DNA from: Owenia fusiformis
Taxonomy: Eukaryota
NCBI GenBank assembly: GCA_903813345.2
Contig: CAIIXF020000001.1
Coordinates: 6,138,001 to 6,202,000, forward strand
Length of the DNA stretch: 64,000 nucleotides
Reading direction: 5' to 3'
The position numbers and the translations under genes were made by a program. A model generated the notes under the pieces. It saw only the letters and a list, made by a program, of their open reading frames with translations, was not told where the DNA came from and made no database searches. This document shows, piece by piece, positions 1 through 64,000 of the stretch; position 1 is the stretch's first letter, and every line of letters begins with the position of its first letter.

Positions 1-165
1 CACCAGAACCCCCCTTGGCTACGGGCCTGTTCTTTGTGATTGTTAGGTTTTCATTATTACCTATTCACAATGCGAAAACATTTGCATATTCAAGGAAACG
101 ATACATGCATTTCGTTTTCAAGATCATGTTATGGATAACTGAAAATAGAAATAAAAGTTGCTTAC

Positions 166-27829: not shown

Positions 27830-28247
27830 TCACATAAATTACATAAAAACACAGTCTTAAAAGTATGTTAATGGAAATATATACAAGGAATGAAGATGAA
27901 AAGTACATACAAAATTGTGATGATGACTTATCACCAGTACATGGTAACAGTTATTAACAAAATTCACAGTGTCTAGAACTAATATTTTCTACACATCTGC
28001 ACATCTGCATGTTGAATGGGTTAATGTTGCACTTTGTTATTCATTCGAATCGAAAGCAATTCACATTGTATTTTAACAGTACTTATAGAGATTTGTACCG
28101 ACATGTAGGATTCACATCCGTTTTATTGTCATATACACAGATCGCCAATTGAAATAAAGTAAATTGCATGTTTTTTTTGGGATTGATGAGTAATTATATA
28201 GATACAGTGATGTACATGTACTGTAGTCCGTATCTTGTGATTTGTCG

Positions 28248-31200
28248 TTAACCCCAAGGATCCTCGTCGTCGGAATCCTCCTGAAAAACAATAAACAAAT
28301 AACAAAATTTATGTTTATAAAATTACCCATTGTTATATAATGATTAACTTAGATACATTATGCATGATGGAACCTAATATGATGTGAGTTTTCAATGAAA
28401 ACATTAAAACATGAGCTCGAATTCCCAATTGGACATTAGGACAATGTGCGTTTGATAAGGATCTCTTAGACACTTTGGTATTGCATCCACTATGTAAACT
28501 AACAAAGATGATAACAATTAATTATGTATCCTCACCCAAGCCTTTTTCCTTCTAAAGGTAGCCCTTTCTTCCACCTTCTTTACTGGTTCAGGCTAAAACG
28601 AAAAAATCAAGTGTATATGTGAGCACTAGAAAAAGGATTGTTTCAATGTTGAGCTTTAATAGACTAGATGCGAGTAGAAATAATCTTGATTTACGTCATC
28701 AAAAATTCAAACTTCAGTCAAACTGATGTCATATTTGGAATCTACATGTAGAATTACATCTAGAAGTGTGGTTTTGAAGAGTTTATCAACTTTGAAAATT
28801 TAATTGTCTTGGAAAATGGGACTTCTAGGTCGGGGGATTCCCCATAGAGCCCATGTTGTAAAATCACAAAAAGTGAAATATCTTTTCTAGTGTTGGGCAG
28901 ATAATATTTTCTTTTACTGGGCATATTTTAATTTGTATAACTATCAGATACAAAAGAGTAATATGAAAAGTGAACCACTAAAACTGATGAATATTCAAGT
29001 TTAAGGGGATTTTGTAATACCATGCCATGTTATTTCCCCCGACTCAGCCTCCTGGTGGCGAAACTGGTAACTACCTACTCGCATCTGAGTAATTAAACAT
29101 GTTTAACACGTTGCAACAAGTAGTTTACTGACCGTTTTCTCTTTAGGTGGTGGCGTCGGTTCTTTCGGTGGAGGTGTTGGCTCTTTAGGTGGTGGCGTCG
29201 GTTCTTTCGATGGAGGTGTTGGCTCTTTAGGTGGTGGAGTTGGCTCCTTTACTGTCTCTGGTTCTTTCGTTTCCTCGTCGTCACTATCCTCCTATGTATA
29301 TACGATGTTATCAAAATATGATGCCAAGACAACAGTACATAGTTGATGTGGTAAAATATAACAGCCCATACGAAATGATCAATTCTGACAATATGAAAAC
29401 ATTTTTCATATTTTGATGAACATGGATAGTATATATACAGGGTGGTCCAAAACAAAAACGCTCCAAAAATGAAATAATTTCTTTTATGCATATATAATCA
29501 GCTTCATTTTTCATGTACAGAAACTACAATCTATGGTTGACAATGTGAGATCAAATTCATAACACAACATTCAATATCCTTCTTGTTGTGGTCAATTAAA
29601 AAATATGCCGACTTTTGAAAGAAAAGAAAATGTAAAATTTTCGTGTCAACCAAGTGGTCAACATCGTTTGTTTAAACCCATCACATTCTTTTGGCTTCTT
29701 GTTAAGCTGCATTTTGTCAGTATAGAGGTTGAGATCTTTAATGAGGAAGTGTCCCAGCAACCTTTAAGCCATCTTTAGGCATGGCTGCACCTTCTGAGTG
29801 ATATTTTGGACACATTCTAAGATCATCAATGATATCACGATCACAAATAATCAATTTTGTGTAACAGACTTGATATCATATTATCATCCATATATTTTAG
29901 TTTATGCACATAACAAATTGGGTTGATAGGATGGGTATTTAAGAATATTACACTTTGAAAGGGTTTTGTCTTTTAGGGTCACCGTGTAGATGGTTATAGC
30001 TATAATATCAAGAGCGAAATTGGCTCGGAAGGAATATTCCTTTAACGCAATATCAAATAGAAACTGAATAAACCATATGCAAAACATTACATGGATATCC
30101 TATTTATATTGTCCAATGATCATCGCAATGGTCTCTTTGTGACATTATATATATTTTAATCAGACATATTTTCATGAATTAGTTATCACTGAAATAGAAG
30201 TAGAAGCAAAATAAGACAATGCATAAGCATGAAAAGATGTCACCTCCTTGTAAGTTGTTGCAAATGGTTAAAATGTTAAGTCCACTTATTTGTTGCCATG
30301 GTAACATTTCACGTCAATGAGATTGCATTTGTCAGTTACAGAATACAGATATATGAGAAGTGCTTTAAGAAAAATAATCTGTTTTCATGGTAATATATAT
30401 TCATTGCCATGGTATCTGAACCGGTCAAAAACGTCAAAAATATGTTAAAAGTCGTAACATATCTAAATGTGTTGACAATAAAAGATTCCATGTGAACACT
30501 ACTTCTTAAAAATAAATTATTGCAAATGGTTACATAATGTTACAGGTCTACTGATATGTTGACATGGTAACGTGCATTGGCAGAGATGTATCATGTATTG
30601 GAATACATGAATCGTTTATAAATGTTCACAGTAAAACCTTGAGGTCAGTCTAAACAGTACTTGTTACTCTACTTCTTAAATCATTGCAAATGGTTACTAA
30701 ATGTTACACGTTCACTTCTTTGTAACAATTGTAATATATATTGGACAGAAATGTGTTGGAACTTATAACATGTTTATATGCGTTCACAGTAGACAATTTG
30801 AAGTCAATCTAAATTGTGCTTGTTTAGTTATTGGAAGAATTTGTTACAGACGAACGCTAACCATCGTCCACAAAAAGTTGCAAACTATAACAATATGACA
30901 CCACTTCTGATGATGACATAAAAATGAGAAGAAGCCTTCCCGAAATCTACACGTTAGTATTTCTTATATTTCTTGTGATAAGTAACATAAAGTTTTAGCA
31001 GCGAAATGCAAATTATATATATAACCTGTAACTTATAATTGATTATACGAGGGCCATCCAACATGTTCTGTTTGTTAGTACCTTATGCTTTGGTCACATT
31101 TGCTCCGATTTTCACTACGGAGCCCGGCCGATTGAGTATTTTGTCCAAAACTGAATAGAATTTTGAGCAAAATACTCAATCGGCCGGGCGCCGGCCGATG

Positions 31201-34200
31201 GATCGGAGCAAGTGTGACCAAGGCATTTAAGGGTAACCCATATCACTGTGTAATGACCTCTGCCTGTTTATGTGCCACATGTATAATATAGATCGTCACG
31301 GATTTATCAAAGGGAGATTTTTCTATTGACAAATCAATTTCACATTTTATTGGAGGTGAAGTTTCAGAATCTTCTTTTTGTGTTAAATGGGAAAAATTGA
31401 TCTGTAGATTTATTAGCACAACACATTAGCACAACACATGGCATTATGAAATGTACTGTAAATGCAACAAGGTCGTTTGGATTTATATTGCACGAGGATT
31501 TATATTGGCTGATGCTTATGCACCCTTTGGATAATCCACTCTCTCAAAGTTTATTGTAAACTTTCTGACGACTTGTTTTATCTTCAAGACGACTTCCATA
31601 AACTGGAATTTACAGAACTCCCCTAATTTCTTCAAAATAGACTGATCCATTACACTAACCTTGAGCTGCCATATTCTTTTTATACGGGAAGCTTATCGTA
31701 ACCCTAAGTCTACACATTTTCCTACATATCATGAAATACGGTAGAGGTCAAAACACTAACCATTACATCATTGTAAATTAAGTTACCGTTTCGTTTAATT
31801 GACAATTCGTCCAACGTTTTGAAACTTTCAGTAATTATTCTCTTTTTGAATAGTGTGGCGATCTGTATTAACATTTTTTTTAAATTCCAGACACCAAAGG
31901 CTAAAACATATTTTGAACGGCCATCGTATTGAAAAGTTAAAGCTCTATTATTAGATATTTGGATAATATTAGTAGATACACATTCTTTGGGACGTTTGTG
32001 ATTAGATATATCTAAAGCAATTAAATTACAACTAATTAAATAATTTGTATTTTGATGTTACTTTGTTATATTTATCTTACCCATGGTTTCTTCTTTCTAA
32101 ACGTGACCTAAAACGTTATAGTTTGAACAAATCATCATTAGATATTATATTAAGTAAATCAGAGAGTCGAATCAATTATTTTCAATAATACATTTCCTAT
32201 TTCCTTTCTAAGAAGTGCTGATATTATTAGGTACCTTTTCTTCTTCCTTCTTTTCTTCTTTGGGCTCTTCTTTTACATCTTCCTCCTCATCAGAATCGTC
32301 CTATATGAGAAAAGGATTAATATAATGATTTCAGCTATAGAGCTGGTTAATATGATATCTGACCGAGATTACATGTAAATCACTTTTATTCCAAAGAGTG
32401 ACACACGAGGATAACTCCAACTAGCGCATACCATTTTTCTCTATACCATTCCCCTTTTCACATTTTTAGACCTATCATAAATAAATATTTGTTTGAAGTT
32501 TTAAGGTACAACAAACATACTACATTTCCATAAATATATGGGGAACCTACTCGACAGTTTACTGTTATGGTAAGTACAAGGGTTGTTCAAAAGGTTTTAC
32601 ACAAATATATATTATATCTCACCCAGGGATTCTTCTTTTTAAATGCAACCTTTTCTGGTTCCTTATCCTACAAAAAATGACAAAGGTCAGAACTAGAAAT
32701 TCTATTGGCGTTTCAATCCTGTGATATCAGACAACATGAATGCAATTTCATTTTATGGAATTAATAATACCACATGTCTTCACATACTTCTTTGGCATCG
32801 TCCTTAGTTTCTTCATCCCGTGGTTCCTTGTCTTTAGTTTCATCTTCCTCATCGGAATCATCCTGCATTGTATTGACAAGCTATGATTATAATACATGGT
32901 GCTGATTAGGGTATTCACAAAAAGCTAGATATATTTCATCTTCTGGCCAATCGATATGCAAAATAGTTAACCTATCATTAAAGAAGCACGGGTGATTAAA
33001 TTCACTCGATTTCTGTATACTGATTTCTGTGTTGTCCGTTACCTAAATGCATTGGTTCAAAGACTGTGAACAAAATCAATGGTCAGTGCATTAAATCTCA
33101 AAGCATTAGGTCTATATCCTTGAACATAGTTGGTTAGTTAGTTACAAACAGGAAAATCATATTGAAGTTAAACAAATTTGAGATTTTTCTGTGCAATCTA
33201 TTATCTTCTCGTTTAGAAAAAATACCAAAACGGGTTACCCATGGTTGCTTCCTCTTTTTGAATATAGTCTTTTCGGGTTCCTAAATCAAAATAAAGAACA
33301 CATGCAGGTGAGTACAATCCCAAACACTCTCATGCTTATGGCTATATGCTGAATTCCAGAGAAGAATTATGTGGAAATAATACCCAAGTCATATTGCACA
33401 TAGAGTGCATTTTATTGTAAATACTCTTTTTGCTGCATATTTGGCAACTATGCAACAGTATGGGTATTTACACTACCCTTCATAGGTTTGGCAACCTTAC
33501 CTCCCCATTGAACTACGTGTTAAAGCCTCGTTACGTTTGAATTTTTATTTACTTGCGATGAAATAACTTATAATGTTGATGGAAACCTAACTTGACTTTA
33601 TTTCCAATACCTCCAAATTTTCCCATTTTTCCTCGATTACAATAAGTCGAAAATTGATGATGGGAAATTATGGGTTCGGGCAAATGGGAAATCAGGATAT
33701 CTATTCAGTAAAAGATTCAGCAAAAAATATTTTTATATAGAACTATCTAACTTTTTTTAACTTTGTTGATCCTGAAGAAAGGTATCATTTTTTTTGTTAA
33801 ATAAATTTAGCAAATTCAATTGCCTACGTATAACTTGTTTTTTTTGCAAGGACTCAGAGTGATGGATATTCTGTCATATGACTTGCGGTAAACCTACCAT
33901 TTCCCATTGGTTAACATGGGAATGTCGTTTTTCAAAAATTTATCAAAATCATAATGTTCGACCTATTGTAATTGAGAAAATTTGGAGGTATTGACAATAA
34001 AGTCAAATTACGTTTCCATCAATAGTATAAGTACTCTCATTGCAGGTTAAGTAAATAAAAATTCAAAGGTAAAGAGGCTTTAACATGTAGTTCAATGGGG
34101 GAGCTAAGGTTGCCAAACTTATGGAGGGGAGTGCATATTTTTACTCTGTATTGCTGGTGGTATCGGGAGAAACAGCACACATATTTTTTTAATAAACCAT

Positions 34201-37200
34201 GGCACACACACATCACATTTTAGAAATTGTACTCAGAAACAGAATTCCATGACTCATATATATATATATATGCGTTGTCTAAAACATAATATGCGTTATA
34301 TAAAATCCATACATCGACATAGTGTGCAACGTAATCTTAGAAATAATTTCCCATATACTGAATCTCTTTTGCCCCCACCCATAGATGTGAGCTTTCAAGA
34401 TTGATAATATTGGTAGAGATGCAGTTCATATGATCTAACACTCGATAAAGGATTGGTATCGATATGGTGAGGAACACACGTTTCTATTAAACCAGTCATT
34501 AAAAAAATGTTTACACATCGTCAATTTAGTGGTCATGTTTTGAATGGTAACAATATAATTTGAAATATTTTTTCTCAATATTGTTTTAGAAAACACATCG
34601 GTCACTTCTTTTGTTCCTGGTATCATATGCTGCAACTGCACTAAAAACAAAAAATGTTAACAAAAACAGTTATATAAAATATATACAAATAATTTTCGCA
34701 TTAAATTGTCGTCAATCAGTCAACATTAAACAAAGGACCGTGTTTTGTAACAGAATGTTTTCAATAATTGGTTTAAGAGAAAAATATTGCTGAATACAAT
34801 TCACCATACCGATACCAATCCTTTGTCATTAACCTACACATGACTACAAATACTTCAATAGACGACCGTGTGATTTGTTCATTTACACATTAAATTGAGG
34901 AGAAACACAAAGCAGGTGATAAAACAAAGACAAGTCATACATTTTGCATATATTTTAGATTATGCAAAATGATGGCTCAGAACTACAAAACAATACACCA
35001 ACGTTAGATTCCTATATACTCGCTACTTTGATTTTTACGAAGATAAAAATCACATCATTCATGCCAAAAAAAAGAATAAAAAAGAGATGCTAAAACGTTT
35101 TTAAAGACTATCGACTATATACCAGGTATATGTTAAGATGAAACGAATGGTGGACATGTAACAATTGCAATTGACAAGAGAAACTAGTGAATATTAGCAG
35201 GAATATGATAAAGGACATTTATTTTAAAATGGAGTGAGGACAGAAACTACGCCAGTATAATGGGTAAATTCGTATAAGTGTTGTAATATAACAGGGGCGG
35301 ATCTGGGAACCAACAAGGGGGGGAGGCCCAAATTTCAGGTCAGAGAAAAAATCGTCCGCGAAATTTTGGGCCCTTAAAACCCAAAAGTGGGCCCAAATTT
35401 TGAAATTTTGAGGCCCATTTTCTTCAAAATTTGGCCTGAAATTAAAAAATAAGGCCTGAAAGGCCCAGTAATGACCAAAGAGGCCCACTTTTTGGGGCCT
35501 GAAGGCCTTTTTTGGCCCCAAATTTTTTTAGGGCCCAATTGTTTTTTTCTGGGCCCACCCAAGGGGGGGGGGGGGGGCCGGGCCCCCAGGCCCCCCCTAA
35601 TCCGCCAGTGTATAAACTGACTAGAGAAGTTCGTAGTTTCCATGAAGTAACCTACTAAAGGAGATACTGCTTCGTATTGGTTGTCTACATACCTTTTTAG
35701 ATTCCCCCTGCTGCTCTCCCTTTACCTCTTCTTTTGGTAGGTCATCTTTGGTCTCTTCATCATCCGAATCGTCCTGCAATAAATGAACACACCGTTAAAT
35801 ATCTGAATATACGATGAACACTGGATTATGATTCTGCAAACGGTTCAGCTCGTTAGACGCTATATAAATAAGTAATTTCTTATCAATTTTAATAAATCAG
35901 CGTCTCGATGAATATACTTGTTTTTCTTCTTTTATATAAATAAGTATATATACTGTTTACATAGAATATAGCTCACTTTAGTTTGTAACTCAAATGTTGA
36001 CATCCAAATACAATGACCAATATATTTTTAAAGTACGGATCTACAATAAAACAATTACCCAGGGTTCTTTCTTCTTTTTGAACATGGTTTTTTCTGGTTC
36101 CTACAGTAAAATTTACGTCAATAAGGCAGAGGTAAAGCAGCTAAACAAACTGACATTATATGCCTATACCACCAAATGTGATTTCTAGTAAATTGTACAT
36201 TTTATAGTAATCAATTTGGTGAAATAGATATAATATACATGGTAGGAAGGTTGGCATAATGTAAATGTATAAACATTTTAAGAATATAATTTACATGTAT
36301 ACCCAAAGCAAGTTACAAATCATGATCAATTGATTGAATTCACACACGATTTTAATGTAAGGCAATTAATTATACTTCTAAGCTATTTTATTGAAAATGC
36401 AAATGGTTAAACGTTATGATACCGATTGATTTCAAAAATCTTTGTTCATAGCAATCTATTTGCCTTTTTTGGTTCCTCTTTCGGCTCATCCTTAATTTTT
36501 TCACTCGGTTCCTCATTTGACTCCTCTGCTTTTGATTCATCCTCTTTCTCCACATCTTCTTTTGCATCTTCTTCATCAGAATCTTCCTGTTTTTGCACCA
36601 ATGTAATACATTTTACAAAGTGATTATGATTACTCTCGAGTGCAGTATATATAACCAAAGCATGGAATAATGTTTATAAAATATCAAACATATTAGACTA
36701 GAATTTGCATGTAGAAAAATCAGAAATCATCTAGCGAGCATCCAAAACGGTGATTACTGATTACTGAGTTAATGTATATCTGAATGGGTGTTGAGATATA
36801 CCAAGTAAATAGATGTCAAAATACGATTTTTGGTCAAATAAAATATTGGAAGTATTAAAGATTTGAAAATTAATTCCATGTGTTTTCCATTTTATCTTTT
36901 GCTTATTAATTTAAATGGGTTTATAAGAGTTCATCAACTCTTTTGGTGAGCTCTGTGATATGTGGGGGTCAAACGTTGTTTATCTGGAATAAGGCCAAGA
37001 TGTTTGTAATGATCGACTCTATGGAAAACATTATTTCCAATTTTAAAGTTATGAATTTAGAATTCACATTTTCCTGGGTTTGAGAATATTATGTTTTTAC
37101 TTTTAGAAGCCTTGGAATTCATTGTCCATGTCTCAGACCATTGTAAAATTTTGTTATTTTTTGTTTAAATCAGAATATAGTTGGTATAGAGATACATCAT

Positions 37201-52200: not shown

Positions 52201-55200
52201 TCATGCATTCGATGCAAACTACTAGCGAACCACTTCAACTAAGAAATGGAAATATGATTCAAGGTGCAAAAAACTTTTTATCATCTAAGTGTCACAATCA
52301 CAGATACAGAAGCAAAACTCGAATTTAGCAATGAATGTTCAATTGATCCAATATGTAAAATTTCATTTTCTAATTTATAACGATCATCTTACCTTTTGCT
52401 CCTCTTCTTCCTGAAAAAAGAAGTAAATAAGTGAGAACAATAGTCAAAATGTTCGAAGATAAATACACAACAAGCACAGCAAGAAAAGGAAAACAAAGAC
52501 ATGGAAAATAAAATAACATTATCCCAATCTATGATCGATCCAATGCACAATTAAGATTTCCTATTGAAATGAGGTTACTATTAGTATTATCACCACATCT
52601 TGAAAACTAAATAATAGTCACTCGCCCTAGGCCTGGACCAGGATAATGACCATCATGGGCTGCCAATGTTGCCCTCAAGTCAATAAAGTATAGTGAGAAT
52701 AGTCATGATAATAAGGTGGTGATAATGGCTGACAATCCCCCTAACCAACCAATCAGGAATCATAAGTACAACACAAAACCGTAGTTATAACAAAACAAGT
52801 TAAAAATCAAATTAAAAATATATTTCGCCAGAACTCTTGACATTTAAAATGAAAACTCACAAATTTCAAACTTTACAATATGTGATGTTATGGTATGGTA
52901 GATATTATTATTCAATATCATGTAGTTTTATTTGGAGTGTAATGAGTGAAGCTTATCCGCCATGATTTATGCATGCCAACACAAAACCGTAGTTATAACA
53001 ATACAAGTTGAAAATCAAATTTAAAATATATGTCGCCAAAATTCTTGACATTTAAAATGAAAAACTGTGCTTTCAAAATTTTTACTCATAACTTTCAAAT
53101 TTTACAATAAGCGATGCTATGGTATTGTAGGTATCACTCTTGAAAATACATTATGTAATGAGTGAAGCTTATCCGCCATGATTTATGCATGCCTAAAATT
53201 GAATGCTAATTCAAAATCAATGTTAATCATATCAGGTAAGATACGCAAGGCAATACTGAAGCATTTACATGTTATTAGAGAATAGACTAGAACGATCAAC
53301 TTGGTTTTCAAGGTTTTGTTATTCATAACATTGTGATTTTGTCCGTTTATAATGGAATTCATCCATAATAACTGACACAATGTAACAAATAAACCATAAC
53401 ATTTCTTGAATGTTGAACGATTAATCGCAAGCTTTAAATTTAAGATAATTTGCAGCTTAGAGTTAGCCAATGTTTCAGCAAGTATTATTTTTTCTACATT
53501 GTTTCACATTTCATCCACAGACCAAAGGTAGTTCATGTTATCCGTTGTCATTCCATGTAATAAGAATGTCGATAAATAAAACCTAGTTCCTAATTTTCAT
53601 TCGGAAGATTATTGTTAGAGGGAGTGAAATTTGAAAAATAATATGAAAAGCACAAGGTACAAAGTTCCATTCCCAATTCTTATTGTTATATTATAATGCC
53701 GTGTTTTCATATCTAAAGCTGTGATGAAGTAAAATATGTTAAAGCGAAACGACGTTTAGGCAATCCGTGCTTAGATGTAGAAATAGTTACAGGTGGGTAT
53801 CCGCCCCAGAACTTGAACTAAAATTAAATAAACACAAACGATCATACTAAGATGACAGTTTATTCATAAAACATTGTGTAAATTTGCAGTATATTTTAAT
53901 CTAACATATTATATATGCGTGTATATTAGCTATGTTTTATAAATCACTGTCTTACCCATCCAGCTTTCTCGCGGGCTTCCTTTTCCTAAAAGGAGAGAAA
54001 TATTGCATTGATCCCTTCACATGGAAATTGGACCAGACAATGCAGAAATTATATAAGACTTACTGCAGACATTGACAAAAGATTATAAACAAGAATAAAC
54101 AACTACATTCCACACTACGTTAACATAAAAGACTGAGTAGCAACAATGAATGTTGAAACTTGAAAAACATATTTTCACATGATTAAAAAGTATGTACGAC
54201 TCCAAATATCCAACAACCCCATTCAAATAGTATTAGTATAACAACTACATGTAATTAATGAAGAAGGGTGAATACTCTAACCATCTGCTTACCTTTTCTG
54301 TCTCTTCCTTGTTTTCCTGGAAGATTAAATCAGTGTTTACACATATTAAATTTATATAATGGATGTAATGTCGCAGTTGTTGCAAACAAGGACAATAATG
54401 TTACACATTTTTGCATTTTATAGGTAGGTGTAGGTCGTGTGCATATTGCATTTTTAGGTTATACAAGAATCCATTTTAGAATACATTGACATTAGAAACA
54501 TTATCAATCACGCTGACATACACTCTTCTCCAACGTGAACCCCCCCCCCCCCCCCCCATTGCATTAGTTAAAACCTAATTATATTTAGACTCCAGATTGA
54601 AAATCTGGAGTCTATTGCTTTTGCCAGTTTTCTTATTCTTTCTTTCTTTCTTTCTGAACACTTTTTCTCAGCAACTAGAAGAACTTACACTCCCCTCCAT
54701 AAGTTTGGCAACCTTTTTTCTCCATTGAACTACGTGTTAAAGCCTCTTTACGTTTGAATTTTTATTTACTTAACCGGCGATGAAATAACTTATAATATTA
54801 ATGAAGACGTAACTTGACTTTATTTCCAATACCTCCAAATTTTCTCAATTTTTTTCCTCAATTACAATAGGTCGAAAATTGATGATAAATTTGATGAATT
54901 TTTGAAAATCGTCATTCCCATGTAATCCAATGGGAAATGGAGGGTTCGGGGCAAATCAGAAATCAGAATATCTTTTCAGTAAAAGATTCAGCAAAAAATA
55001 TTTTCATATAGAAAATTGAATTGTCTAACTTTTTTGAACACTAAGTGTTTAGTTTATTTGATGAATATTAAAGTTACAGCGCTCAAAGTCATTTTTGAAA
55101 AGAATTTTTCGCCTCCTGTGTTATTTCAATGGGAGAGGTTTTTTGAAAAACAATTTTGACTTTAAAGCCCTATAACTTTGTTGAACCTGAAGAAACATAT

Positions 55201-58200
55201 CAATTTTTTGTTAAATAAAGTTAGCAAATTCAATTACCTGCCTGACTCGTATTTTTTGCAAGGACTCGAATGGATGGATATTCTGTCATATGACTTGCGG
55301 CAAACCTACCATTTCCCATTGGTTAACATGGAAATGTCGATTTTCAAAAATTCATCAAATTCATCATCAATTTTCGACCTACTGTAATTGATGAAAAAAA
55401 TTGAGAAAATTTGGAGGTATTGGAATTAAAGTCAAATTACGTTTCCATCAATAGTATAAGTATTTTCATCGCAGGTTAAGTAAATAAAAATTCAAAGGTA
55501 AAGAGGCTTTAACACGTAGTTCAATGGGGAAAAAAGGTTGCCAAACTTATGGAGGGGAGTGTACTTTAACCTACTTACATGGCTAGCATAACCCATCAAC
55601 CTAGTTTCTGGGAAATTAGGTCAAATTTGTATCTAGGTCAAAGGTCAAGAACTAGCTCAAATTTAGGTCAAATCAACATTCTGTCAATTATCTTCGTTGT
55701 TGTTTGTCGTTACTCCTTCATCTTTATTTCATAAGCTATATGACTCTTTAGTCCAGCCTATACTAAACTATGGTTCATCTATATTTGGCCTCAACCAACA
55801 TCAATGCCTGAACAATGTTCAAAATAAAGCTGGCAAGTTCTTTCTAGGTGTAAACAAACGCACTAGTAATGAGGCTGTTAGAGGAGATCTCGGATGGGAC
55901 ACTCCACATTTAAAACAAAAGGTGGAATGTGCTAGGTTGTTCATTAAACTGAAGTCCATGAATCAGAATAGGCTGAATTTTAAAATACATGAATGGTCCA
56001 TTAAACGGAAAAGCAGTTGGGACTTTAAAGTTAATTCAATGTTAAATACATGTAATATAAATTTCACTGGTCATACCAAGGACATTTTAAAACAGTTTAC
56101 TAACTCTCTTCGTAATTCTGATAAATTTATCCATAACATATGGGATGATAGAAATAATGAGATTAATGGCAATAAATTGAGGCAATATAGACTGTACAAA
56201 TATGGTGTTTGCAAGTAAGGGTATTTGGCCCTACCAAAGCATCACCGTAGGTCACTTGCGAGATTCAGAACTGGTACTTTGGCCTTAGCAATTGAAGCAG
56301 GGCGCTACACAGGTATACCATTACACGAAAGGAAATGCTTATTGTGTGACATGGATTGTGTAGAAGATGAAAAGCATTTCTTATTAGAATGTAGCCATTA
56401 TGATGATCTAAGATGTGATTTTTATGAAAATGTTAAACAGAAATTGCCTTATTTAGATGTAACATCAGTCAATTCTACACTTCTTTTTGTCTCCATAATG
56501 AATTGTACTTCACTCCACAATTTGTTTCCCTTGACATCAGTGTATAAAATTTGCACCAGACACAAAGATCACTTTTTTATAAAGAAAAATTGTAAGAAAT
56601 TCAGCCATCTTGAATCTCTTCTTGAGTTAAGCCCATTTGTCCCCTAGCAACAACATATAAAATTTGAATCAAATCTGTCAACTAGCATTTGACAATGGCG
56701 GTCATTTTGAATTGAGAAGCCATATGGAAAATTCTTGCTCGAGCAGAGGTCCTTTATCCAAAAGGCATAAGCCTATTAACTCAGTCAACGACAATTGAGT
56801 TATCGACTAGACAGTTAGCACAAATGTATTTTTGTTCTGACCCATTTATATCAATGGCAACCACCTGTCATTTGTTACAGTCACCGATCGCCAAATACCA
56901 CCCACAAACGTTTGGAGACTGCAACAACATGTTACCACTTGTGGTGGTGACATAAAAAATGTCAAACCTTTTTCGAATGAGAATGTATAACGGTTCAGTA
57001 CGTTTAAGACATAACATTCGAGGGGGATGAGTGCATGTCACAGGCTGTAATGATTTGATGTGAATATTGGAGAGAAGGAGCAAAGTTTATAAATGTAATA
57101 ATTGCGAGAGAAAAGTATATCTAATGAATTGTGATCATCATATTCCTTACCTCTTTGTCTTCTTTCTTATCCTCGCTGGATCCCTACAAAATATAAATCA
57201 GACGGCTCTCGATAAGGAATTTTACATCATTTGCAAAGGACCGGGTATACAATGGCAAATGATTTTGGACAGTCATATATTTCACCATGAGTACTTTCCG
57301 GCCATAACACAGTGGTTTTTATTAAAACAATATGTTTTCTTTCAAGTGAAGTCCACGTGATAATAAAAGAGAGAGTACTCATGGTGAAAGATATGACCGA
57401 CGTCTAAAATCACTTGCCATATACCTGAACCACTAAATTAATATTGCTATTTTCCTAAATTGTAAAATGATCTTTAATCTTTCAAGTTTTATATTACTGC
57501 ATTAGGAGTCTTTCTATGGATTGATAATATATCGCATATGTGCTCTGTTTGTATTGTATTACATTGACCACAACAATGTACAATGTATTATGAATAATTT
57601 GTAAATAACATGGAGAACAATCTAAATAGAATGAACTGAGAATACTAGATGAAGAGAATTATGAGAAGAAGACGTCTGTCACATAATATAGATAATTAAT
57701 CAACAGATACAAGAATATCAGTATAATATAATCAGTGATACATTAAGACAGAAATTATATCATAAAGACTAATTAAAGAAGCGTTACATGAAATGAAGGC
57801 CAAAAGAAAACATAACAGAAGACAATATATGACACTGTATAAACTAATCACAGCTAATATAATCGTAATATCATAAAGTATACTCTAGTTGTGTTAGACA
57901 ACGTTAGACATGTAAACAAACATGTCCCATTAAGTTACATTATCATGTTAAGGCATGCCAATAATATGTTTGTCACGTGACGTTCACACGTTGACTTACC
58001 CATGGATCTTCGTCGTCTGAATCTTCCTACAAAGGTCAAACTTAAAATTAAATTATCTCCTACTGGAAAATAAGAATTGAGTTAATGATCAATTATATTT
58101 CACTTTGAGATGTGATTTGACAGGATTTGTATAATCTATCGGAGCATGCGATAAGCACAAAAATGTAAATACAAAGCAGTAATCACTTCATTTTATATGA

Positions 58201-61200
58201 ATTCATGATTAAGTAAGGAAAACAAAACTAGAGGTTTTACCCATTCAGCTTTCTTCTTTTTGAATACTGCCTTTTCAGGTTCCTTTGGCTGAAACAAAAT
58301 CAGTTGCGAGAAGATAGAAAATGGATCACTGGTGTGATAAATACTGATGGCAATGATATATGTTAGAATGATGCCCGTTTCAGTATTATCAAATCATATA
58401 ATATACAATAAATGGTTATGTATGATTACAGTCATCATATCCTTATATTACCTTTTCTTCCTCTTTTTCTTCTTCATCAGATTCCTCCTGTAAACGAAAT
58501 ACACAACGAGGTTAAATCGACTCGGAGACTGGGGGTTGTTTTGTTTTATTTCATGTGCATCTTATTTCTGATATATTTTCCGAATTGAAATATAATTGAA
58601 TTGTTTCGTCTATTATACGTATTTAAATACATGTATTATTTCTTAGTTTCTAGCTTACCCAATCAGCTTTCTTCTTTTTAAAAACTGCCTTTTCAGGTTC
58701 CTTTGGCTGAAATAAAGTCAACGTTTCTTTTGAAATTATGTAATTTGCATATGAAATTTTCTCAGGAAGATTTTAAGATATATATGTTTTAAGAGTTTAC
58801 AATCAATTGTATATATTTATAAAACATATAATTCACTCTCTTCAATAGATTTTCAAATTAATACCTTTTCTTCCTTCTGTTCTTCATCAGAATCCTCCTG
58901 CAAGGCCAAAATTGATAATAAATTAGTTTGTGTTTTTTAAACAATTTATCAACAGATTTTATTTTCATTAATAAACATAAGTACGTGATGGATCCGGTTA
59001 CCAGTTGTATTATTATGTGTCATTTAGCCAATGTTCTTGTATGACATTTGTGTGTAGGCTTTGTGTTAAATTTTTTCATACACATAACATCTAGGGTAAA
59101 TGTGCTTGTTAACGAATTGCATGTCATGATAGGAGAATATTGCATTTGACCAATTTGCTTTGAACTAATATTCAAAATCAAATCCAAATGAGAGCAAATT
59201 ACATGGAACTTATAATTGATAAAATGCATTAGTTATATAAGCGATCTGCCCGACCAGTTGACTATAAGAAAAAAATAGTACATACCCATTCCTTTTTACG
59301 GCGAAATGTAGGCTTGGGTGGTTCCTGGGGAAGATGATAGAAAGACAGGGTAATGTAATGATTGCAGGAGATTTGAATTCTTTTTCTTTCACAAGTTCAT
59401 TCTTTTGGCAGATAAAAGTATGAAATGTGAAAGTGAATCCAAATACATGGTGAACAAACACTACAAGTACTGTAACACTGGCGGATCCCATGCCACCCCC
59501 CCCCCCCCCCTCTACAAATTCTTAAGGCCCCAAAATATTTTGTAGAGCCTCAAAAATGGGCCTTTTTGGCATAACTTGGCCTTTTTCAAAAATGGACCTT
59601 AAATTTTCAAAATTAATCTATTTTTCAAGATTTGATGTGTCCCCCCTCCTTCCTAGTTTCTGGACTCGCCGGTGTGTAAGGTATAATTACTATTGATGAT
59701 TAGCTAAGCATACATGGTCAGGGAATGAGAAGCCAGCAAAGAATTTTTTCTAAGGATATTTTCAAAAGAACTTAATGGCAACTAAGATATTCGTATTTTG
59801 TCAAGGTTTTGAATCCTGGTAGGATATATACCTTCTTTTCCTCCACTTCCTCCTTCTTCTCATCCTTCACTTCTTCTTTTCCCTGCGTATAAATATTATA
59901 TAATTTCAAGTGATGGTAATAAACAAGGTTCAGTATATGCAGAGATCCATATGGATTCCTCTGTACAGGATCGGCGGGGACATGATTTTAGTTGTGGCTA
60001 TATTTTCCATGTTAAATTATTTCAAACGTTTTTACATTTCTGTTTCAGCCTTGGCTTTGTTTTATAATGGGGTTAGATGTTCAAATGACTGTTTATTATT
60101 TCGCTTTGGATTATTCATTTCATATTCTTATACATAGGTATATATAAAACGCAACCTTTTAAAAATTGGTTTGACTTTTTAAATTTTTGATCCAAAATCA
60201 TAATTTGCATACCAAAATAAAAGTTTAATCTACGGTATAAAATTGCTAGCCCTGCCCTATGAATTGTACACTTTTACTTGAATAAAATATGTTACCAGAG
60301 TCTCACCTTAACATGTGTTGTGCCATGAACAAATAAACATAATATGCATAGTGCAGCTGAACGGATAAGGCCTGATGAGCACCCAGCTAATTAATAGTCC
60401 TGGTGCAAACCCCAGTGATTATAGGATATGGAAAGGTCTCCAAGAGATGGTATAAAGGCACACAATCTCAAAGATTGCTGAAGCTGGCAATCTTAATTGC
60501 TAAAGCTGGCAATTAAGACAAGTTGGATGAAACTAGTCAAGATTTCACAGATACTGCCATATTAGCGTGGCGCGACTAAGGCTATCATCAAAGAAGTTGG
60601 AGGGCCAATTTAACTCCCTTTTGAGGACGATTACAATCCAAGTTGAAGGACATGTTATATTATTTTATTACCAAGGGCCTATAAACACTTTATATTGTTT
60701 TTTTAAAGTAGCGTTTTTCTGGCCCACCCTGTAGTTAATGTGTTTGAAGTATTCTAGTATTGCCCTTTACCTCCTCTGTTTCCTTCTTTGCCTCCTCTTC
60801 ATCTACCTCTTCCTTTTCTTCCTGCAAAAGTAGGTCATTTCCATTTTGCAGTATCTTCATTTAATAAGAGCATTGGCCGTGGAAGTTGAATGCCATTCTA
60901 TTAGCATCATTTTTGCAAAGAACAGTGAACATTAAGTTCAAACTGGCCAACTCCAAAATGACCTAAATCTTTTAAGTGTATGGTCTAGAACCTGGCAATT
61001 GAAATTTAAAGCATCTAGCTAAAAGTGTTCATTTAGTTTTTCGCTCAAACCGACAAAAAAATATTCAAATGTCTCGGCTTTACTTTGATGGCGAAATGAT
61101 CCCCCAAAAGCAATCACACAAGCACCTGGGTTTCATCTTAGATGAGAATTTGACTTTTAATGACCATATAAACTATCTGTCTAATAAAGTTCAAAAACTG

Positions 61201-63189
61201 TTAAATCCTTTGAAACTCATATCAAACAAAATACAGTCGCACCATCTTGAAATAATGTATAATTCATATTTGGAGTCTCATTTTGACTATTGTAGCTCCA
61301 TTTACGGATCGTCATCCTTGGCGGCCTTATCAAAGCTTGATAAAATCCACTTCCAAGCTGCTGTTATATGTACTGGGGTACTGCATGGCTCTAACACCTC
61401 AAAAACTTTAAAATGTTTACAGTGGAAACCGCTTACTGACAAAAGACACGAAAAAATCTAAGACTGATGTTCAAAATTGTAAGAAAGGAAGTGCCTTATT
61501 ATGTCCATAGTCTTTTTGACCAACATCGCAACCAAGCAACTAGAATTTTAAGACACTCCTTACCCTTTTCCTGCCCAAGAAATATTTCAATGAGACTCTC
61601 CAAACCACCAGTTTTAAAACTTATAAATGCTTCGAACCAGCTAAGCCAGACTTTTCGTGAAATTCAAACCATTTCTAGATTCAAAAGCTCTATTAAATAG
61701 ATATTTATCCCTATTTCAAACTTCATACCAACTACAAAACTAAATTAAGTAGAACCAACGAAAAACTGCTAAATAGGCTTCGAGTTGATTTTGCCCTTAA
61801 AGAGCATTTCTTTATTCATAATTTTACTGGAATAATTGACAACAAATGCCTCTGTGGCTCTACTGAAGACACAAAGCATTTCATTCTAATCTGCCCTCGC
61901 CATACCTATGAACGTAGACTAAATGATGACTGCACTTCGTGAACAAAATGTATTGTTTGATACTGAACTTATTTCTAGTAAGACAGAACAGGTCAAATAC
62001 TTAATTTATGAAAATGAACTCACTATTGATTCTCAGAAAATCCTGATAGATATAGTGATGCAATTTGTACAGCCCTGTTATAAGTTTCCAACAAATTAAT
62101 GTTATTATCATTTGTATCTTGTGACAACCCCCCTCCCTCCCAACCTCTCACATTACCAATAACCATCTATGATTACTGTAATTAATCCTCTATTGTAATT
62201 TAAACTACCTAGAATGCCTATGGCGATTGGTAGTAGATATTTTGTGTATTTTCTGATTATGAAATAAATAAATAATATGTTTAAAAAACTTTAAGTACAA
62301 GTAGATGCAAGGTATTAAAGTATTCTAGATCTTGAGACCCTGTGACAGAGGGTACGTTTTAAGAAGACATACGACTAGTAGCATGCAAAAGCCATCGAAA
62401 CCTTTTAATTATAAAAGCAAATTGGCTTAATCTCTATCATAATATTACTTCATGTTCGATGATCATGTCTAACGTTATCTTTATGCTCCAGCGATAGTCT
62501 AACTGTCCTTACCTTTTCCTCATCCTCTTTTTCTTCTCCATCAACTGCGTCCTGTAACAACAAGACAAAAATGTACTTTAATGTACAGTATGACCAGCTA
62601 AAGATGTCATTCAATGAATGCTTCCTCGTACAAACTTAGTTAACACAAAATGAAAGTCCACTTGTCCACGTGATATACGAATACGTATGAGATTCATTTT
62701 CCATGAGTATTTAAGTCATATGTTATATCTAATTCAGTACTGTTCATCATTATTGAAATTTGAAAGTATCAGAATGTTTATAATTATCTTTCTAACAACT
62801 CAAAGCCAAAAATAGTCTTCCACATATCCTATACAGGTACAGATTTTAAGACTTTTGGGCAGTTAATTATGTAATGATCGAGACTCTAATCTAAACAGCT
62901 AAGGAGACAAGACACATACAACACTGACGGATCAAGCCCCTCCCCTTGGTGGGCCCAAAAAATGTTAGGGCCCCAGAAATATTTGGGACCAAATAAAATT
63001 GTAGGGCCTCAAAAAAGGGCCTTTTTGGTCATCATTTTTTCCTGACTCAAAATCTGTCCCCCCCCCTCCCCTCCCTCTTGTTGGCTTTTTGGATCCGCCA
63101 GTGTATTGCAAAAACAGCAATTGAAATACATGCATCACACAATTATCTTCTACCTTTTCCTCCCCATCTTCTTCCTTTTCCTCCTTTGC
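28248..63189 (-). CDS. Giant micro-exon gene encoding a Glu/Lys-rich repeat protein with 19 F-K/R-rich-W|[DE][DE]S modules (5'-partial, ~830 aa in window)
   Basis: 49 phase-0, stop-free exons, each a multiple of 3, in transcript order: 63154-63189, 62513-62551, 60771-60821, 59832-59882, 59286-59324, 58865-58897, 58659-58706, 58452-58487, 58241-58288, 58000-58026, 57151-57183, 54293-54316, 53956-53985, 52393-52410, 52085-52129, 51751-51792, 51182-51229, 51012-51053, 50733-50762, 50350-50373, 50024-50050, 49712-49753, 49361-49411, 46652-46693, 46404-46454, 45305-45346, 44964-45008, 41824-41865, 41521-41568, 40738-40779, 40481-40552, 40119-40160, 39642-39749, 39426-39467, 38946-39053, 38730-38771, 38324-38434, 38073-38114, 36464-36586, 36059-36100, 35693-35773, 33239-33280, 32788-32862, 32623-32667, 32235-32300, 32081-32107, 29133-29291, 28536-28592 and 28248-28280 (EDSDDEDPWG*). 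All have AG acceptors. Donors are GT except two GC. Confidence 0.88.
28665..29087 (-). mobile_element. Copy of the 657-1066 element in reverse orientation
   Basis: Reverse-complement similarity over its length, with ends TAGATGCGAGTAG / CTACTCGCATCTG. Confidence 0.8.
29139..29249 (-). repeat. Coding 21-nt repeat (KEPTPPP)x5 within exon 29133-29291
   Basis: Translation KEPTPPPKEPTPPSKEPTPPPKEPTPPPKEPTPPPKE. Confidence 0.85.
31086..31225. mobile_element. Second copy of the 140-bp palindromic MITE
   Basis: Reverse complement of 17756-17895. Confidence 0.75.
33471..34133. mobile_element. Internally deleted, diverged copy of the CACTCCCC MITE
   Basis: Same TIRs and body as 4069-4944, with deletions. 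Confidence 0.85.
35292..35610. mobile_element. GC-rich MITE with CAGGGGCGGAT/ATCCGCCAGTG termini and 5-bp TSD
   Basis: TATAA on both flanks (35287-35291 and 35611-35615). Confidence 0.75.
36800..38040 (-). mobile_element. Decayed CR1/L2-type LINE reverse-transcriptase fragment
   Basis: ORF 37165-37365 contains INAGVPQGSALGPLLFPIYITD (GVPQGSxLGPLLF RT motif) and a frameshifted YADD. Boundaries are approximate. Confidence 0.7.
38644..40027. repeat. Recent ~696-bp tandem duplication carrying one basic-W exon and one acidic exon per unit
   Basis: Exon pairs 38730/39426 and 38946/39642 are both offset by exactly 696 bp, and the intron sequence is nearly identical. Confidence 0.92.
42511..44325. 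mobile_element. 1.8-kb non-autonomous foldback element with CAC termini and 5-bp TSD (Transib-like)
   Basis: TCCAT-CACGCCTAACCATCGCGTA ... TACGCGATGGTTAGGCGTG-TCCAT. TIRs ~470 bp, plus an inner inverted repeat at ~43115-43240 / ~43510-43650. Confidence 0.8.
45557..45830. repeat. Degenerate (ACTAT/ACTAC)n pentanucleotide microsatellite
   Basis: Read directly from the sequence. Confidence 0.85.
45917..46236. mobile_element. AT-rich MITE (CACTCTTAAAAAT TIR, TA TSD)
   Basis: TA-CACTCTTAAAAATTATTACTTG ... CAAGTAATTCATTTTTAAGAGTG-TA. Confidence 0.75.
46808..47560 (+). mobile_element. Heavily decayed Tc1/mariner-superfamily transposase remnant
   Basis: 47196-47253 reads like a degenerate WP.RSPDL.P.DFF.WGYLKE (CCGAACTTCTTTCACTGGGGTTATTTGAAAGAG). 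Boundaries are approximate. Confidence 0.45.
47792..48816 (+). mobile_element. Decayed mariner-derived element (CAGGGTGA TIR, TA TSD)
   Basis: TA-CAGGGTGATCACTAAGTTC ... GAACTTAATGCTCACCCTG-TA, with internal remnants FHCNNAPSY and LAHASYSP. Confidence 0.75.
52769..53192. repeat. ~210-bp imperfect tandem duplication in an intron
   Basis: AACACAAAACCGTAGTTATAACAA ... GAAGCTTATCCGCCATGATTTATGCATGCC occurs twice. Confidence 0.8.
54688..55561. mobile_element. CACTCCCC MITE, full-length copy
   Basis: TA-flanked and near-identical to 4069-4944. Confidence 0.9.
55697..56600 (+). mobile_element. 3' fragment of a non-LTR retrotransposon ORF2 (RT C-terminus + CCHC zinc knuckle)
   Basis: LYDSLVQPILNYGSSIFG..KFFLGV..TSNEAVRGDLGW, then RFRTGTLALAIEAGRY..ERKCLLCDMDCVEDEKHFLLEC. 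The reading frame is broken between the two ORFs. Confidence 0.8.
57244..57425. mobile_element. Small palindromic MITE-like insertion
   Basis: ATGGCAAATGATTTTGGAC..TTTCACCATGAGTACT is mirrored by AGTACTCATGGTGAAA..CTAAAATCACTTGCCAT. Confidence 0.6.
59476..59674. mobile_element. GC-rich CACTGGCGGAT MITE with 5-bp TSD
   Basis: TGTAA on both flanks (59471-59475 and 59675-59679). Confidence 0.7.
60900..62280 (+). mobile_element. 5'-truncated CR1-like LINE 3' end
   Basis: ORFs 61069-61700 (HKHLGFILDENLTFNDHI, MYNSYLESHFDYCSSIY, LQWKPLTDKR), then C.CG..EDTKHFILICP, ending in an (AAAT)n/A-rich tail at ~62262-62289. Confidence 0.8.
62922..63103. mobile_element. GC-rich CACTG(A/G)CGGAT MITE copy
   Basis: Termini CACTGACGGATC / GGATCCGCCAGTG. 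No clean TSD. Confidence 0.65.
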
Positions 63190-64000
63190 CTTAAACACAA
63201 TTTGTATTATATAAATAACGTTTGACAAAATGATTATGCATAACAAGCGTAATATTAATTAGTTTCTTTTTTCTGTCATCCATGTAAATAAGATATGATG
63301 ACAAGTATGGTTATGTCGCATTGACATTGGCACTGATTGCTGGGGGCAATTTACATACTGTATAATTGCAAATTGCCATTTACCAGTTTAAATAAACATT
63401 TTCTTGATAGTTGCATCAGCTGGTGGGTGAATTGTTAGTGTCTATTACCTGCTCGTGAGTTGATTTCTGAATTAGCCCCGAATCATGATATTATTCCTAT
63501 AGTCACTTTCGATGATACAATTAATGCGTATGGTTATATCACGAGAAGGTCAACAAAATATATTCATTTACCTATTCGTTCATAGTCAACATTAGTCTTG
63601 AAAAAGCTTGATGGGAATTTCTAGTAATTGGAGCTTGTTAATCCCAAGCAAAGAAGTATTTTTTCAAGTTTTGACACTTGGGGGAAGGTTGGCACCAAAG
63701 TTTATTGATGGGTCAAGTTATATTTCTTAATGCTATATAGGGCCAGGATTACAGAGAAAGACTTTTTAATCACTGTTCCACAGCAGGAGGACTCTAACAG
63801 CAGTTAGCGTCATTCAAGATGGTTGCCGAAATTCTTTTAGTTTTCGATAAACCTCCGACTTCAGTTAAACCAAGCTGAATCTGGATTCCAAAAGTTTCGC
63901 CATGCAAACTACTAAAGTTATGATTTTAAACAATCACAAATAAAGGCTCAAACACCCGCAATATTGGAGAATTTTAAAGAATGACTCTAACTGAAATTGG

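Follow-up and report, generated by a model that had tools for sequence, protein, structure and literature searches.

Introduction

Titin PEVK and insect sallimus are rich in Pro, Glu, Val and Lys and are encoded by many small symmetric exons, whose extensive skipping sets the length of the chain. ER/K single alpha-helices are long E/K(R)-rich stretches that form a stable isolated helix. Schistosome micro-exon genes (MEGs), flatworm genes for secreted proteins, are described as having exons of 3–81 bp and introns of up to 5 kbp (PMC10526429; 10.1101/2023.06.21.545858), and one account of treacle gives it 11 central repeats, encoded in exons 6A–16, some of them alternative, with acidic CK2 units between basic stretches (PMC9133508). 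Here we analyze a locus of the annelid Owenia fusiformis that lies in a 64,000-nucleotide stretch of contig CAIIXF020000001.1 (positions 6,138,001 to 6,202,000 of the forward strand), hereafter the window. Between positions 28248 and 63189 of the window, 49 very short exons on the minus strand join into a single highly charged repeat protein. The explanation that we favor, taken as a whole, is that this region holds the 3′ part (830 codons or more) of a genuine, transcribed annelid protein-coding gene that grew by duplication of a two-exon cassette and encodes a charged polyampholyte, which would serve as a multivalent motif scaffold; we put its probability at about 75%.

Like the MEGs, the locus has short symmetric exons (44 of the 49 measure 81 nt or less) separated by far longer introns, and skipping in frame is possible. 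Unlike them, it is an annelid gene, encodes at least 830 amino acids, has a regular two-exon repeat and includes five exons longer than 81 nt. A literature search for micro-exon genes in annelids found no such gene described, the matches listed dealing with a tapeworm genome, fish myxozoans and a flatworm phylogeny. With titin PEVK the locus shares small symmetric exons, skipping and a combined Pro, Glu, Val and Lys content of about 66%, but its repeat unit is a different one, with fixed Phe, Trp and Ser. Titin PEVK, moreover, lies between Ig/Fn3 exons, whereas here a stop codon and an AATAAA follow at once downstream and the upstream side is beyond the window. Symmetric micro-exons with skipping (MEGs, PEVK) and acidic/basic CK2 repeats (treacle, Nopp140) are thus already known. 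New are the strict alternation of two exon types, which we call A and B, a motif that spans their junction, the absence of a detectable relative, and the host phylum.

A chain of 49 symmetric micro-exons

The minus strand was scanned for segments bounded by AG and by GT or GC and open in phase 0, and positions 28000-34000 were also read directly. The resulting 49 exons are each a multiple of three in length, in phase 0 and free of stop codons. Acceptors are AG in 49/49 cases and donors GT in 46/48, with a consensus of GT(A)(A/T)(G); the two GC donors belong to exons 38324-38434 and 36464-36586. Exons range from 18 to 159 nt (median 42 nt, with 39/49 at 51 nt or less) and introns from 120 to 3098 nt (median 314). 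The joined coding length is 2493 nt, or 830 amino acids plus the stop codon, which amounts to 7.1% of the 34,942-bp span. Purine content is 76% in exons vs 49% in introns; the first base is G in 44/49 exons, and TGG ends 22 exons and AAG 18. The joined product ends EDSDDEDPWG*, and an AATAAA at 28122-28127 on the minus strand, about 120 nt past the stop codon, is the likely poly(A) signal, with no read ends among those listed.

A preliminary description of this DNA had proposed at least 49 symmetric phase-0 minus-strand exons of 18–159 nt over 35 kb, with AG acceptors and GT donors except for two GC, about 2.5 kb of coding sequence, some 830 amino acids and the ending EDSDDEDPWG*. Our chain, rebuilt with matching splice sites, agrees with it on all of these points. 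It had also placed the N-terminus outside the window: no start codon or first exon was found in 63190-64000, the chain is open at the window's 5′ edge, and the gene extends upstream. The label 'giant', by contrast, suits the 35-kb locus and not the 830 amino acids seen. Candidate segments at 54625-54666, 42198-42215, 33611-33631 and 29129-29161 (wrong frame) were dropped from the chain as chance clusters, as were five small ones that lie below 28000, and the long introns, scanned for extra exons, gave nothing convincing.

The sequence is of low complexity, and chance frames in purine-rich repeats, or a transcribed but non-coding or decaying locus, have to be weighed as an explanation. With one fixed filter (charged residues ≥45%, a polypyrimidine tract and a donor match), the minus strand yields 49 candidate clusters inside the region and 1 outside, the plus strand 4 inside and 2 outside, and 20 shuffles of the region 0–7 each. 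A run of 49 consecutive stop-free, in-frame exons with consensus splice sites, vs 0–7 by chance, argues against such a non-functional origin.

A two-exon cassette and a motif split between exons

Exons of the chain alternate between two types. Type B is basic, carries Phe and Trp, is mostly 42 nt long and encodes EPEKxxF(K/R)4xxW, e.g., EPEKxxFKKKKQPW. Type A, 27–159 nt long, encodes an acidic serine block, (D/E)2-S-(D/E)3, followed by a variable E/K-rich tail that ends in KK (e.g., DDSDEE...KK). The phase-0 introns are placed directly after the Trp codon and directly after the terminal Lys codon, so that the conserved unit, F-(K/R)3-4-x1-3-W-(D/E)2-S-(D/E)3, spans the exon junction and exists only after splicing. 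Nineteen copies occur in the joined product. Because the motif straddles the junction, alternative splicing takes out half-motifs rather than whole ones.

Within the joined product, Phe is followed by at least three K/R in 19/19 cases, Trp by (D/E)(D/E)S in 19/23, and Ser lies within an acidic hexamer in 19/30. A degenerate pattern for the B exon matches the window 11 times and 100 shuffles not once. Overall composition is 29.8% E, 22.9% K, 10.6% D and 8.9% P, with no Y, C or H; the preliminary description had called the product almost purely E/K/D/P, which overlooks 23 Trp and 19 Phe at fixed positions, and it had passed over the alternation of exon types and the junction-spanning motif. Three exons with an acidic run and DPW, namely 58000-58026, 50733-50762 and the terminal exon, have G as the next residue and delimit three larger modules, the second and third of which open with GSS. 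DPW occurs three times, always as DPWG.

The nearest likeness in layout is to treacle (TCOF1) and Nopp140 (NOLC1): 19 copies of (D/E)2-S-(D/E)3 alternate with 19 of F(K/R)3-4, and phosphorylation is predicted. There are also clear differences. Each repeat here is split over two micro-exons, and a single invariant Ser per acidic block takes the place of the Ser runs of treacle and Nopp140. To our knowledge, the repeats of those proteins have no invariant Phe and Trp, which are present here. Neither the C-terminal domain of Nopp140 nor the Lys-rich nucleolar-signal C-terminus of treacle is seen, the chain ending in FRRKKAW EDSDDEDPWG*. Treacle and Nopp140 are also marked by an N-terminal LisH domain, and the matching part of the present protein would be encoded beyond 64000.

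Splicing and exon skipping in RNA

RNA was examined over positions 28051-48050 in three stranded raw-read RNA-seq runs that bear the species label of the window (X13, X14 and X15) and one contig run (X1), with the borders of joints read after a +1 adjustment of the cut. Among the 15 joints listed, of about 250, 13 carry CT..AC at their ends when read on the plus strand (GT..AG on the minus strand) and fall exactly at predicted exon borders. The introns so defined are 28281-28535, 28593-29132, 29292-32234, 32863-33238, 33281-35692, 35774-36058, 36587-38072, 38435-38729, 40161-40480, 40553-41520, 41569-44963 (X1 only), 45009-45304 and 46455-46651. Read support per listed joint is typically 21–36 in X13 and 9–38 in X14, and first mates lie on the plus strand in nearly all 13, as expected of minus-strand RNA. 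Of the 26 predicted exons in this interval, 19 have one border or both confirmed among the joints listed. The two other joints, 28716>28781 (GT..GA) and 30664>30831 (TA..TA), are non-canonical and intronic and look like indel or repeat differences. Position 38351, in exon 38324-38434, is covered by 52/52 X13 reads and 50/50 X14 reads. This is a real, spliced and expressed micro-exon gene, in support of the reading that the preliminary description had drawn from the letters, and splicing of such precision and strand specificity speaks against a non-functional locus.

Among the joints listed, three skip a basic (B or B-like) exon. The best-supported joint of all, 29291^32235 (34 reads in X13, 24 in X14), omits the 27-nt exon 32081-32107, which is either a cassette exon or decayed. 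Joint 40552^41521 (6 reads in X13, 11 in X14) omits exon 40738-40779, which a rough estimate from bin depth suggests is also included. The third, 41568^44964, is seen in X1 contigs only and omits exon 41824-41865. Together these joints provide the first evidence for the earlier suggestion that splicing tunes the length and motif number of the protein. Gene-specific bins are some 10-fold less deeply covered in X15 than in X13 or X14, with equal depth in repeat-rich intron bins, which indicates that expression differs between samples.

Constraint on the protein and growth of the array

When 14 B exons are aligned, F and W never vary and E, P and K hardly do, whereas their codons drift synonymously (CCT/CCA/CCC for P, TTC/TTT for F, AAA/AAG for K). 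Conservation of residues where codons vary points to selection on the protein, and is a further argument against a decaying or non-coding locus.

Self-comparison of the array reveals a recent tandem duplication at 38644-40026, in which 38644-39338 and 39340-40026 are 94.4% identical with a 696-bp period, corresponding to one B+A cassette with its introns. Older pairs remain at 77–80% identity (36042-36605 vs 38056-38454; others at 40729, 41789 and 46619), and the other introns of the array can no longer be aligned. One recent duplicate, several older ones and an unalignable remainder indicate that cassette duplication has been extending the array for a long time; repeated tandem duplication of the symmetric B+A cassette would have built the gene. 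The reading frame has been kept through the old duplications, whose introns are now 77–80% identical or unalignable, which a locus without function would hardly have achieved. The array is an unusually clean natural case of a repeat protein growing by duplication of a symmetric two-exon cassette.

Searches for relatives

The protein set of the species is represented in the database searched, since an exon of a neighboring gene (19922-20314, plus strand) matches a 642-aa 'unnamed protein product [Owenia fusiformis]' along its entire length with 100% identity. That protein carries SLC3A2_N and alpha-amylase domains, and its next matches are 40–66% identical, one of them from another annelid. The micro-exon gene behaves differently. 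A word-index search with the 53-aa exon against proteins of 94–2000 aa gave 20 matches among 8000 scored candidates, with no 100% full-query match and hence no self match; four of the 20 were inspected and set aside, as each aligns only through the PTPPPKE low-complexity repeat.

For the repeat itself we built a profile from 18 B exons, the first row lengthened to 40 aa. It gave 0 matches at E ≤0.1 in a word-index search of 7999 candidates of 71–2000 aa, 0 matches in the PDB at E up to 10, and, against 1.84 billion representatives, 2 matches, both unrelated repeat proteins, and no relative. As a control, we scored the joined product with this profile and obtained 253.6 bits in 21 domains (E 3.7e-72 for a library of that size), so a gene model with even a few of the repeats would have been found. 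Pfam assigned no family to five A exons, the last two exons being too short to scan, and the ESM Atlas gave no usable match to a 41-aa exon. Two degenerate DNA patterns, describing the B exon and the spliced B|A junction, each had 0 matches in metagenome contigs, a collection poor in animal DNA, which makes this weak evidence. The B-profile and Pfam searches found no sequence relationship to treacle or Nopp140. The preliminary description had not recognized the family, and none was found by profile, word-index, Pfam, PDB or ESM Atlas searches.

The gene is apparently absent from the protein sets searched, and the published Owenia gene models may hold a model of the locus. That only 7% of the locus is coding, and that most exons are 51 nt or shorter, would account for the absence of an expressed 49-exon gene from the protein set. 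Even where a reference genome reaches chromosome scale, its protein set can, then, lack a clearly expressed gene of 49 exons and 35 kb, and similar genes have probably been overlooked in other spiralian genomes.

These searches bear on a different possibility, that the region encodes no more than the disordered C-terminal end of a larger protein from a known family, cytoskeletal or motor-associated or a PEVK/sallimus-like spring, with folded domains upstream of 64000 and the repeats serving as an entropic spring or spacer. The chain is indeed open at the 5′ window edge, with no start codon or first exon in 63190-64000. About 66% of residues are Pro, Glu, Val or Lys; every exon is symmetric and skipping affects some of them, as in PEVK; and an E/K tail is predicted to be helical and rod-like. 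A pure spring, however, needs no Phe, Trp and Ser fixed at 19 repeats with synonymous drift around them; the stop codon and AATAAA follow directly on the repeats, and no Ig, Fn3 or kinase exons lie beyond them; and no library protein has even a few B motifs. As no annotated protein in the library carries them, no existing gene model appears to reach into the region. We regard a tail or spring of this kind as a possible but distinctly less probable explanation than a motif-based scaffold.

Properties and possible roles of the product

On our best reading of the sequence, the product would be a disordered polyampholyte in which one motif recurs many times. Its charged fraction is 0.65 and its net charge per residue −0.16, and opposite charges are segregated along the chain (z = 6.1 vs shuffles). 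In the scaffold reading, the repeated basic-Trp-acidic unit would be a short linear motif, present in many copies on a flexible or rod-and-hinge chain, and the protein a multivalent scaffold or adaptor with this motif as its working unit. The CK2 consensus is S-x-x-D/E. The single Ser of each acidic block would be a CK2-type phosphorylation site; we read it as an acceptor because it is kept in every acidic block although D/E would do. Skipping of a B exon would drop the F-K4-W half and keep the acidic half, shifting both motif number and net charge. The purine-rich coding sequence may have a second role, as GAR-rich sequence within exons is known as a classical enhancer of splicing: it would probably act as one for these very small exons, which would explain how exons of 18–51 nt are recognized.

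By analogy with treacle and Nopp140, our leading guess for the location of the protein is the nucleus or nucleolus, a tentative one that we hold with low confidence. Less likely still, in our estimate, is the fullest version of the scaffold reading, in which the gene founds a lineage-restricted new family and is the first MEG-like gene of an annelid, and in which the motif is created only by splicing, and exon skipping and CK2-type phosphorylation together set the behavior of a condensate scaffold by stage or tissue. Were it true, motif number, net charge and self-association or partner binding would be set by regulated B-exon skipping together with phosphorylation. If the motif is a phospho-regulated unit of binding or self-association, the gene would allow a study of how splicing sets motif number in a disordered protein.

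A more specific role for the protein would be as a multivalent adaptor in transport or trafficking: its array of W-acidic motifs would bring in kinesin-1 by way of the kinesin light chain TPR domain, or, in a variant, its three DPW motifs would bind the AP-2 appendage. Calsyntenin and SKIP carry WDDS, like the W-D-D-S core here, and DPW, whose three copies here always read DPWG, is linked with AP-2 appendage binding. Trp is followed by (D/E)(D/E)S(D/E)(D/E)E in 19/23 cases, which provides the acidic C-terminal flank. In the literature on these motifs, the W-acidic motif is described as having W at its center, D/E to either side and, in many cases, L/M at W-2 (PMC5450233). Here L/M stands at W-2 in 0/23 cases and D/E at W-1 in only 6/23, P being the commonest residue there; the N-terminal flank is basic, and its four K/R would be expected to repel the TPR groove, which the same source describes as basic (PMC5450233); and there are at least 19 copies vs one or two. 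We consider this role improbable.

The segregation of opposite-charge blocks in one chain would also suit a secreted or luminal polyampholyte, either a self-coacervating tube-cement or matrix protein or a low-affinity calcium buffer, with Ser phosphorylated by a secretory-pathway kinase. Golgi casein kinase recognizes S-x-E, and some copies of the motif read S-D-E. Annelid cements typically have Cys, Tyr, Gly-rich or His-rich features, and none of these is found here; the KKKK runs, too, look more like nuclear-import signals. The difference in expression between RNA samples would fit such a protein, and the source animal is likely a tube-builder; the ancestral annelid has been described as tube-dwelling (PMC6417257). 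On balance we give a secreted role little credence.

Several points weigh against the scaffold reading. Reads and reference differ at four exonic positions, each time by a non-synonymous change (S>P, D>E, N>K and G>E). They lie at 29210, 32815, 38351 and 40533, where nearly all X13 and X14 reads differ from the reference (e.g., 47/48, 52/52). The change at 29210 (S>P) turns a PTPPSK unit into PTPPPK like its neighbors. Being non-synonymous yet composition-preserving, the four variants fit a loose constraint beyond composition. They would also be expected of a non-functional locus, as would a B-like exon that seems unused, and exon 32081-32107 may simply be dead; set against the exon chain, the splicing and the conserved residues and frame, we nonetheless hold absence of function to be extremely improbable.

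Further points concern the reach of the evidence. Inclusion and skipping were read from the 15 joints listed of about 250. The 23 exons above 48050, both GC donors and the choice of donor at 51751/51766 are predictions from sequence only. The libraries searched consist mainly of genomes and metagenomes, with animal transcriptomes thinly represented, and the lack of relatives may partly mean that the gene was never annotated elsewhere. A signal peptide, transmembrane segment or folded domains in the N-terminal part beyond the window could change the picture, and the proposed function is read entirely from the sequence.

AlphaFold2, run on a single sequence, folds the 36-aa A exon at 39642-39749 into one helix (residues 3–35, mean pLDDT 86.7), a weak prediction because the program tends to give helices for any E/K-rich peptide. 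The preliminary description had called the product probably disordered, and this may apply less well to the long A exons, which could be helical instead. Like ER/K single alpha-helices, the product has E/K-rich stretches, one of them this predicted helix, but they are short (10–36 aa) and are interrupted in every repeat by Pro-containing motif blocks. The longer tails may form single alpha-helices broken by Pro-flanked motif blocks.

The exons in order

All exons lie on the minus strand and are given from 5′ to 3′ along it. The first module begins, in the window, with an E/K spacer at 63154-63189 (AKEEKEEDGEEK), which has the weakest splice sites of the chain, and continues with spacers of the same kind at 62513-62551 (39 nt), 60771-60821 (51 nt) and 59832-59882 (51 nt). 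The first B exon, at 59286-59324, is an FRRKK variant (EPPKPTFRRKKEW) and is followed by the A exon EDSDEEQKEEK at 58865-58897. A further B exon (58659-58706, PKEPEKAVFKKKKADW), A exon (58452-58487, EESDEEEKEEEK) and B exon (58241-58288, PKEPEKAVFKKKKAEW) lead to the terminator-type exon EDSDDEDPW at 58000-58026, which closes the module; the next exon opens with G.

Module 2 starts with GSSEDKKEDKE at 57151-57183. It includes a 24-nt E/K spacer (54293-54316), a degenerate B-like exon, EKEAREKAGW (53956-53985), and the smallest exon of the chain, 18 nt encoding EEEEQK (52393-52410). These are followed by a B exon at 52085-52129 (TEPEKVVFKKKKADW) and an A exon at 51751-51792 (EDSDDEDIPASETK), the donor of which is predicted; an alternative in-frame GC donor would end this exon at 51766. 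A 48-nt E/K spacer (51182-51229) and a B exon of the FRRKK variant (51012-51053, KEPPKPLFRRKKDW) precede the terminator-type exon EESDEDDDPW at 50733-50762. The 249-nt intron between these last two exons is itself open in frame, giving a continuous frame of 113 codons at 50715-51053 (minus strand), so that its retention would keep the reading frame.

Module 3 opens with GSSAKKEE at 50350-50373, a 27-nt E/K spacer at 50024-50050, a B exon at 49712-49753 (EPEVAVFKKKKQDW) and a 51-nt A exon at 49361-49411. From here on RNA joints bear on the exons. Joint 46454^46652 confirms the donor of the B exon at 46652-46693 (EPEKVTFKKKRQPW) and the acceptor of the 51-nt A exon at 46404-46454, and joint 45008^45305 the donor of the B exon at 45305-45346 (EPEKATFKKKRQPW). 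The 45-nt A exon at 44964-45008 has its acceptor in raw reads and its donor joined to 41568 in X1 contigs only, the joint that skips the predicted B exon at 41824-41865 (EPEKVVFKKKRQPW), for which no inclusion is seen among the joints listed. Both borders of the 48-nt A exon at 41521-41568 and of the 72-nt A exon at 40481-40552 occur in RNA joints; between them lies the cassette B exon at 40738-40779 (EPEKVTFKKKKQPW), skipped by 40552^41521.

Joint 40160^40481 confirms the acceptor of the B exon at 40119-40160 (EPEKTTFKKKKQPW). The 108-nt A exon at 39642-39749, the one with the predicted helix, is flanked in X1 by loose ends at 39641 and 39750 that run into the start and end of B-exon sequence. 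The predicted B exon at 39426-39467 and the predicted 108-nt A exon at 38946-39053 are recent duplicates of 38730-38771 and 39642-39749, respectively. At 38730-38771 stands a B exon (EPEKTTFKKKKQPW) whose donor is confirmed by 38434^38730. Next come the two A exons with GC donors and RNA-confirmed acceptors, of 111 nt (38324-38434, where GC is the only in-frame donor) and 123 nt (36464-36586, where GC is likewise the presumed donor); the B exon between them, at 38073-38114 (EPERVMFKKKKETW), has its donor in joint 36586^38073.

The donor of the B exon at 36059-36100 (EPEKTMFKKKKEPW) is confirmed by 35773^36059, and RNA confirms both borders of the 81-nt A exon at 35693-35773 and of the B exon at 33239-33280 (EPEKTIFKKRKQPW). 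The 75-nt A exon at 32788-32862 has a confirmed acceptor. The B exon at 32623-32667 (DKEPEKVAFKKKNPW) is predicted, with only an approximate X1 joint, 32664>32787, nearby, and the 66-nt A exon at 32235-32300, its donor confirmed by RNA, is joined straight to 29291. That joint passes over the 27-nt B-like exon at 32081-32107, predicted from its AG/GT borders, which encodes VTFRKKKPW. The largest exon, 159 nt at 29133-29291, encodes EDSDDEE followed by five copies of (K)EPTPPPK, a 21/42-nt tandem repeat, and has both borders in RNA, as does the last B exon, an FRRKK variant at 28536-28592 (PEPVKKVEERATFRRKKAW). Joint 28280^28536 confirms the acceptor of the terminal coding exon at 28248-28280, which encodes EDSDDEDPWG and ends in TAA.

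Repeats within the introns and surroundings of the locus

Several introns contain repeats. A near-perfect palindrome, GGTCACA...CGGCCGG...TGTGACC, at about 31120-31235 in a 2.8-kb intron resembles a miniature inverted-repeat transposable element or foldback element and coincides with an X1 joint at 31120>31174. A dispersed repeat, 87–88% identical between its copies, occupies 33468-34133 and 54685-55561 in two introns; bins over 33387-34720 have reads on both strands at 18–68x, which indicates that copies of it are transcribed somewhere. The intronic segment 28658-29094 reaches about 200–300x depth on both strands, and loose ends number in the hundreds at 28658, 28666 and 29094; an abundant repeat whose expression comes from other loci, it forms no part of this mRNA.

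The window is AT-rich animal DNA, with a GC content of 0.31–0.41. On the plus strand, 19853-22861 holds exons of the neighboring gene named above, an SLC3A1/rBAT-like heavy-chain amino-acid transporter gene whose first exon is the one that matches the annotated 642-aa protein. At 65-3792 on the minus strand, four open frames each encode one thrombospondin type 1 repeat (WSxWS...CSxTCGGG; Pfam TSP_1 for 65-442, E 3.3e-9), and they form two near-identical pairs (65-442/2436-2849 and 2182-2460/3472-3792), which suggests recent tandem duplication. Long open frames with repeated PWDS(M/V)G or SHGVPW-like units run on both strands at 13286-14059, in a region where the 12001-14000 bin has a GC content of 0.41; given the repeated units, they are probably a tandem repeat and not a gene. 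A frame at 12521-12811 (plus strand) resembles a CRAL-TRIO N-terminal domain by eye, and was set aside as Pfam gave no match at E ≤0.01. Finally, a weak match to DDE_3 transposase at 1289-1630 (plus strand; E 0.0076, below the Pfam cut-off) probably marks a remnant of the Tc1/mariner type.

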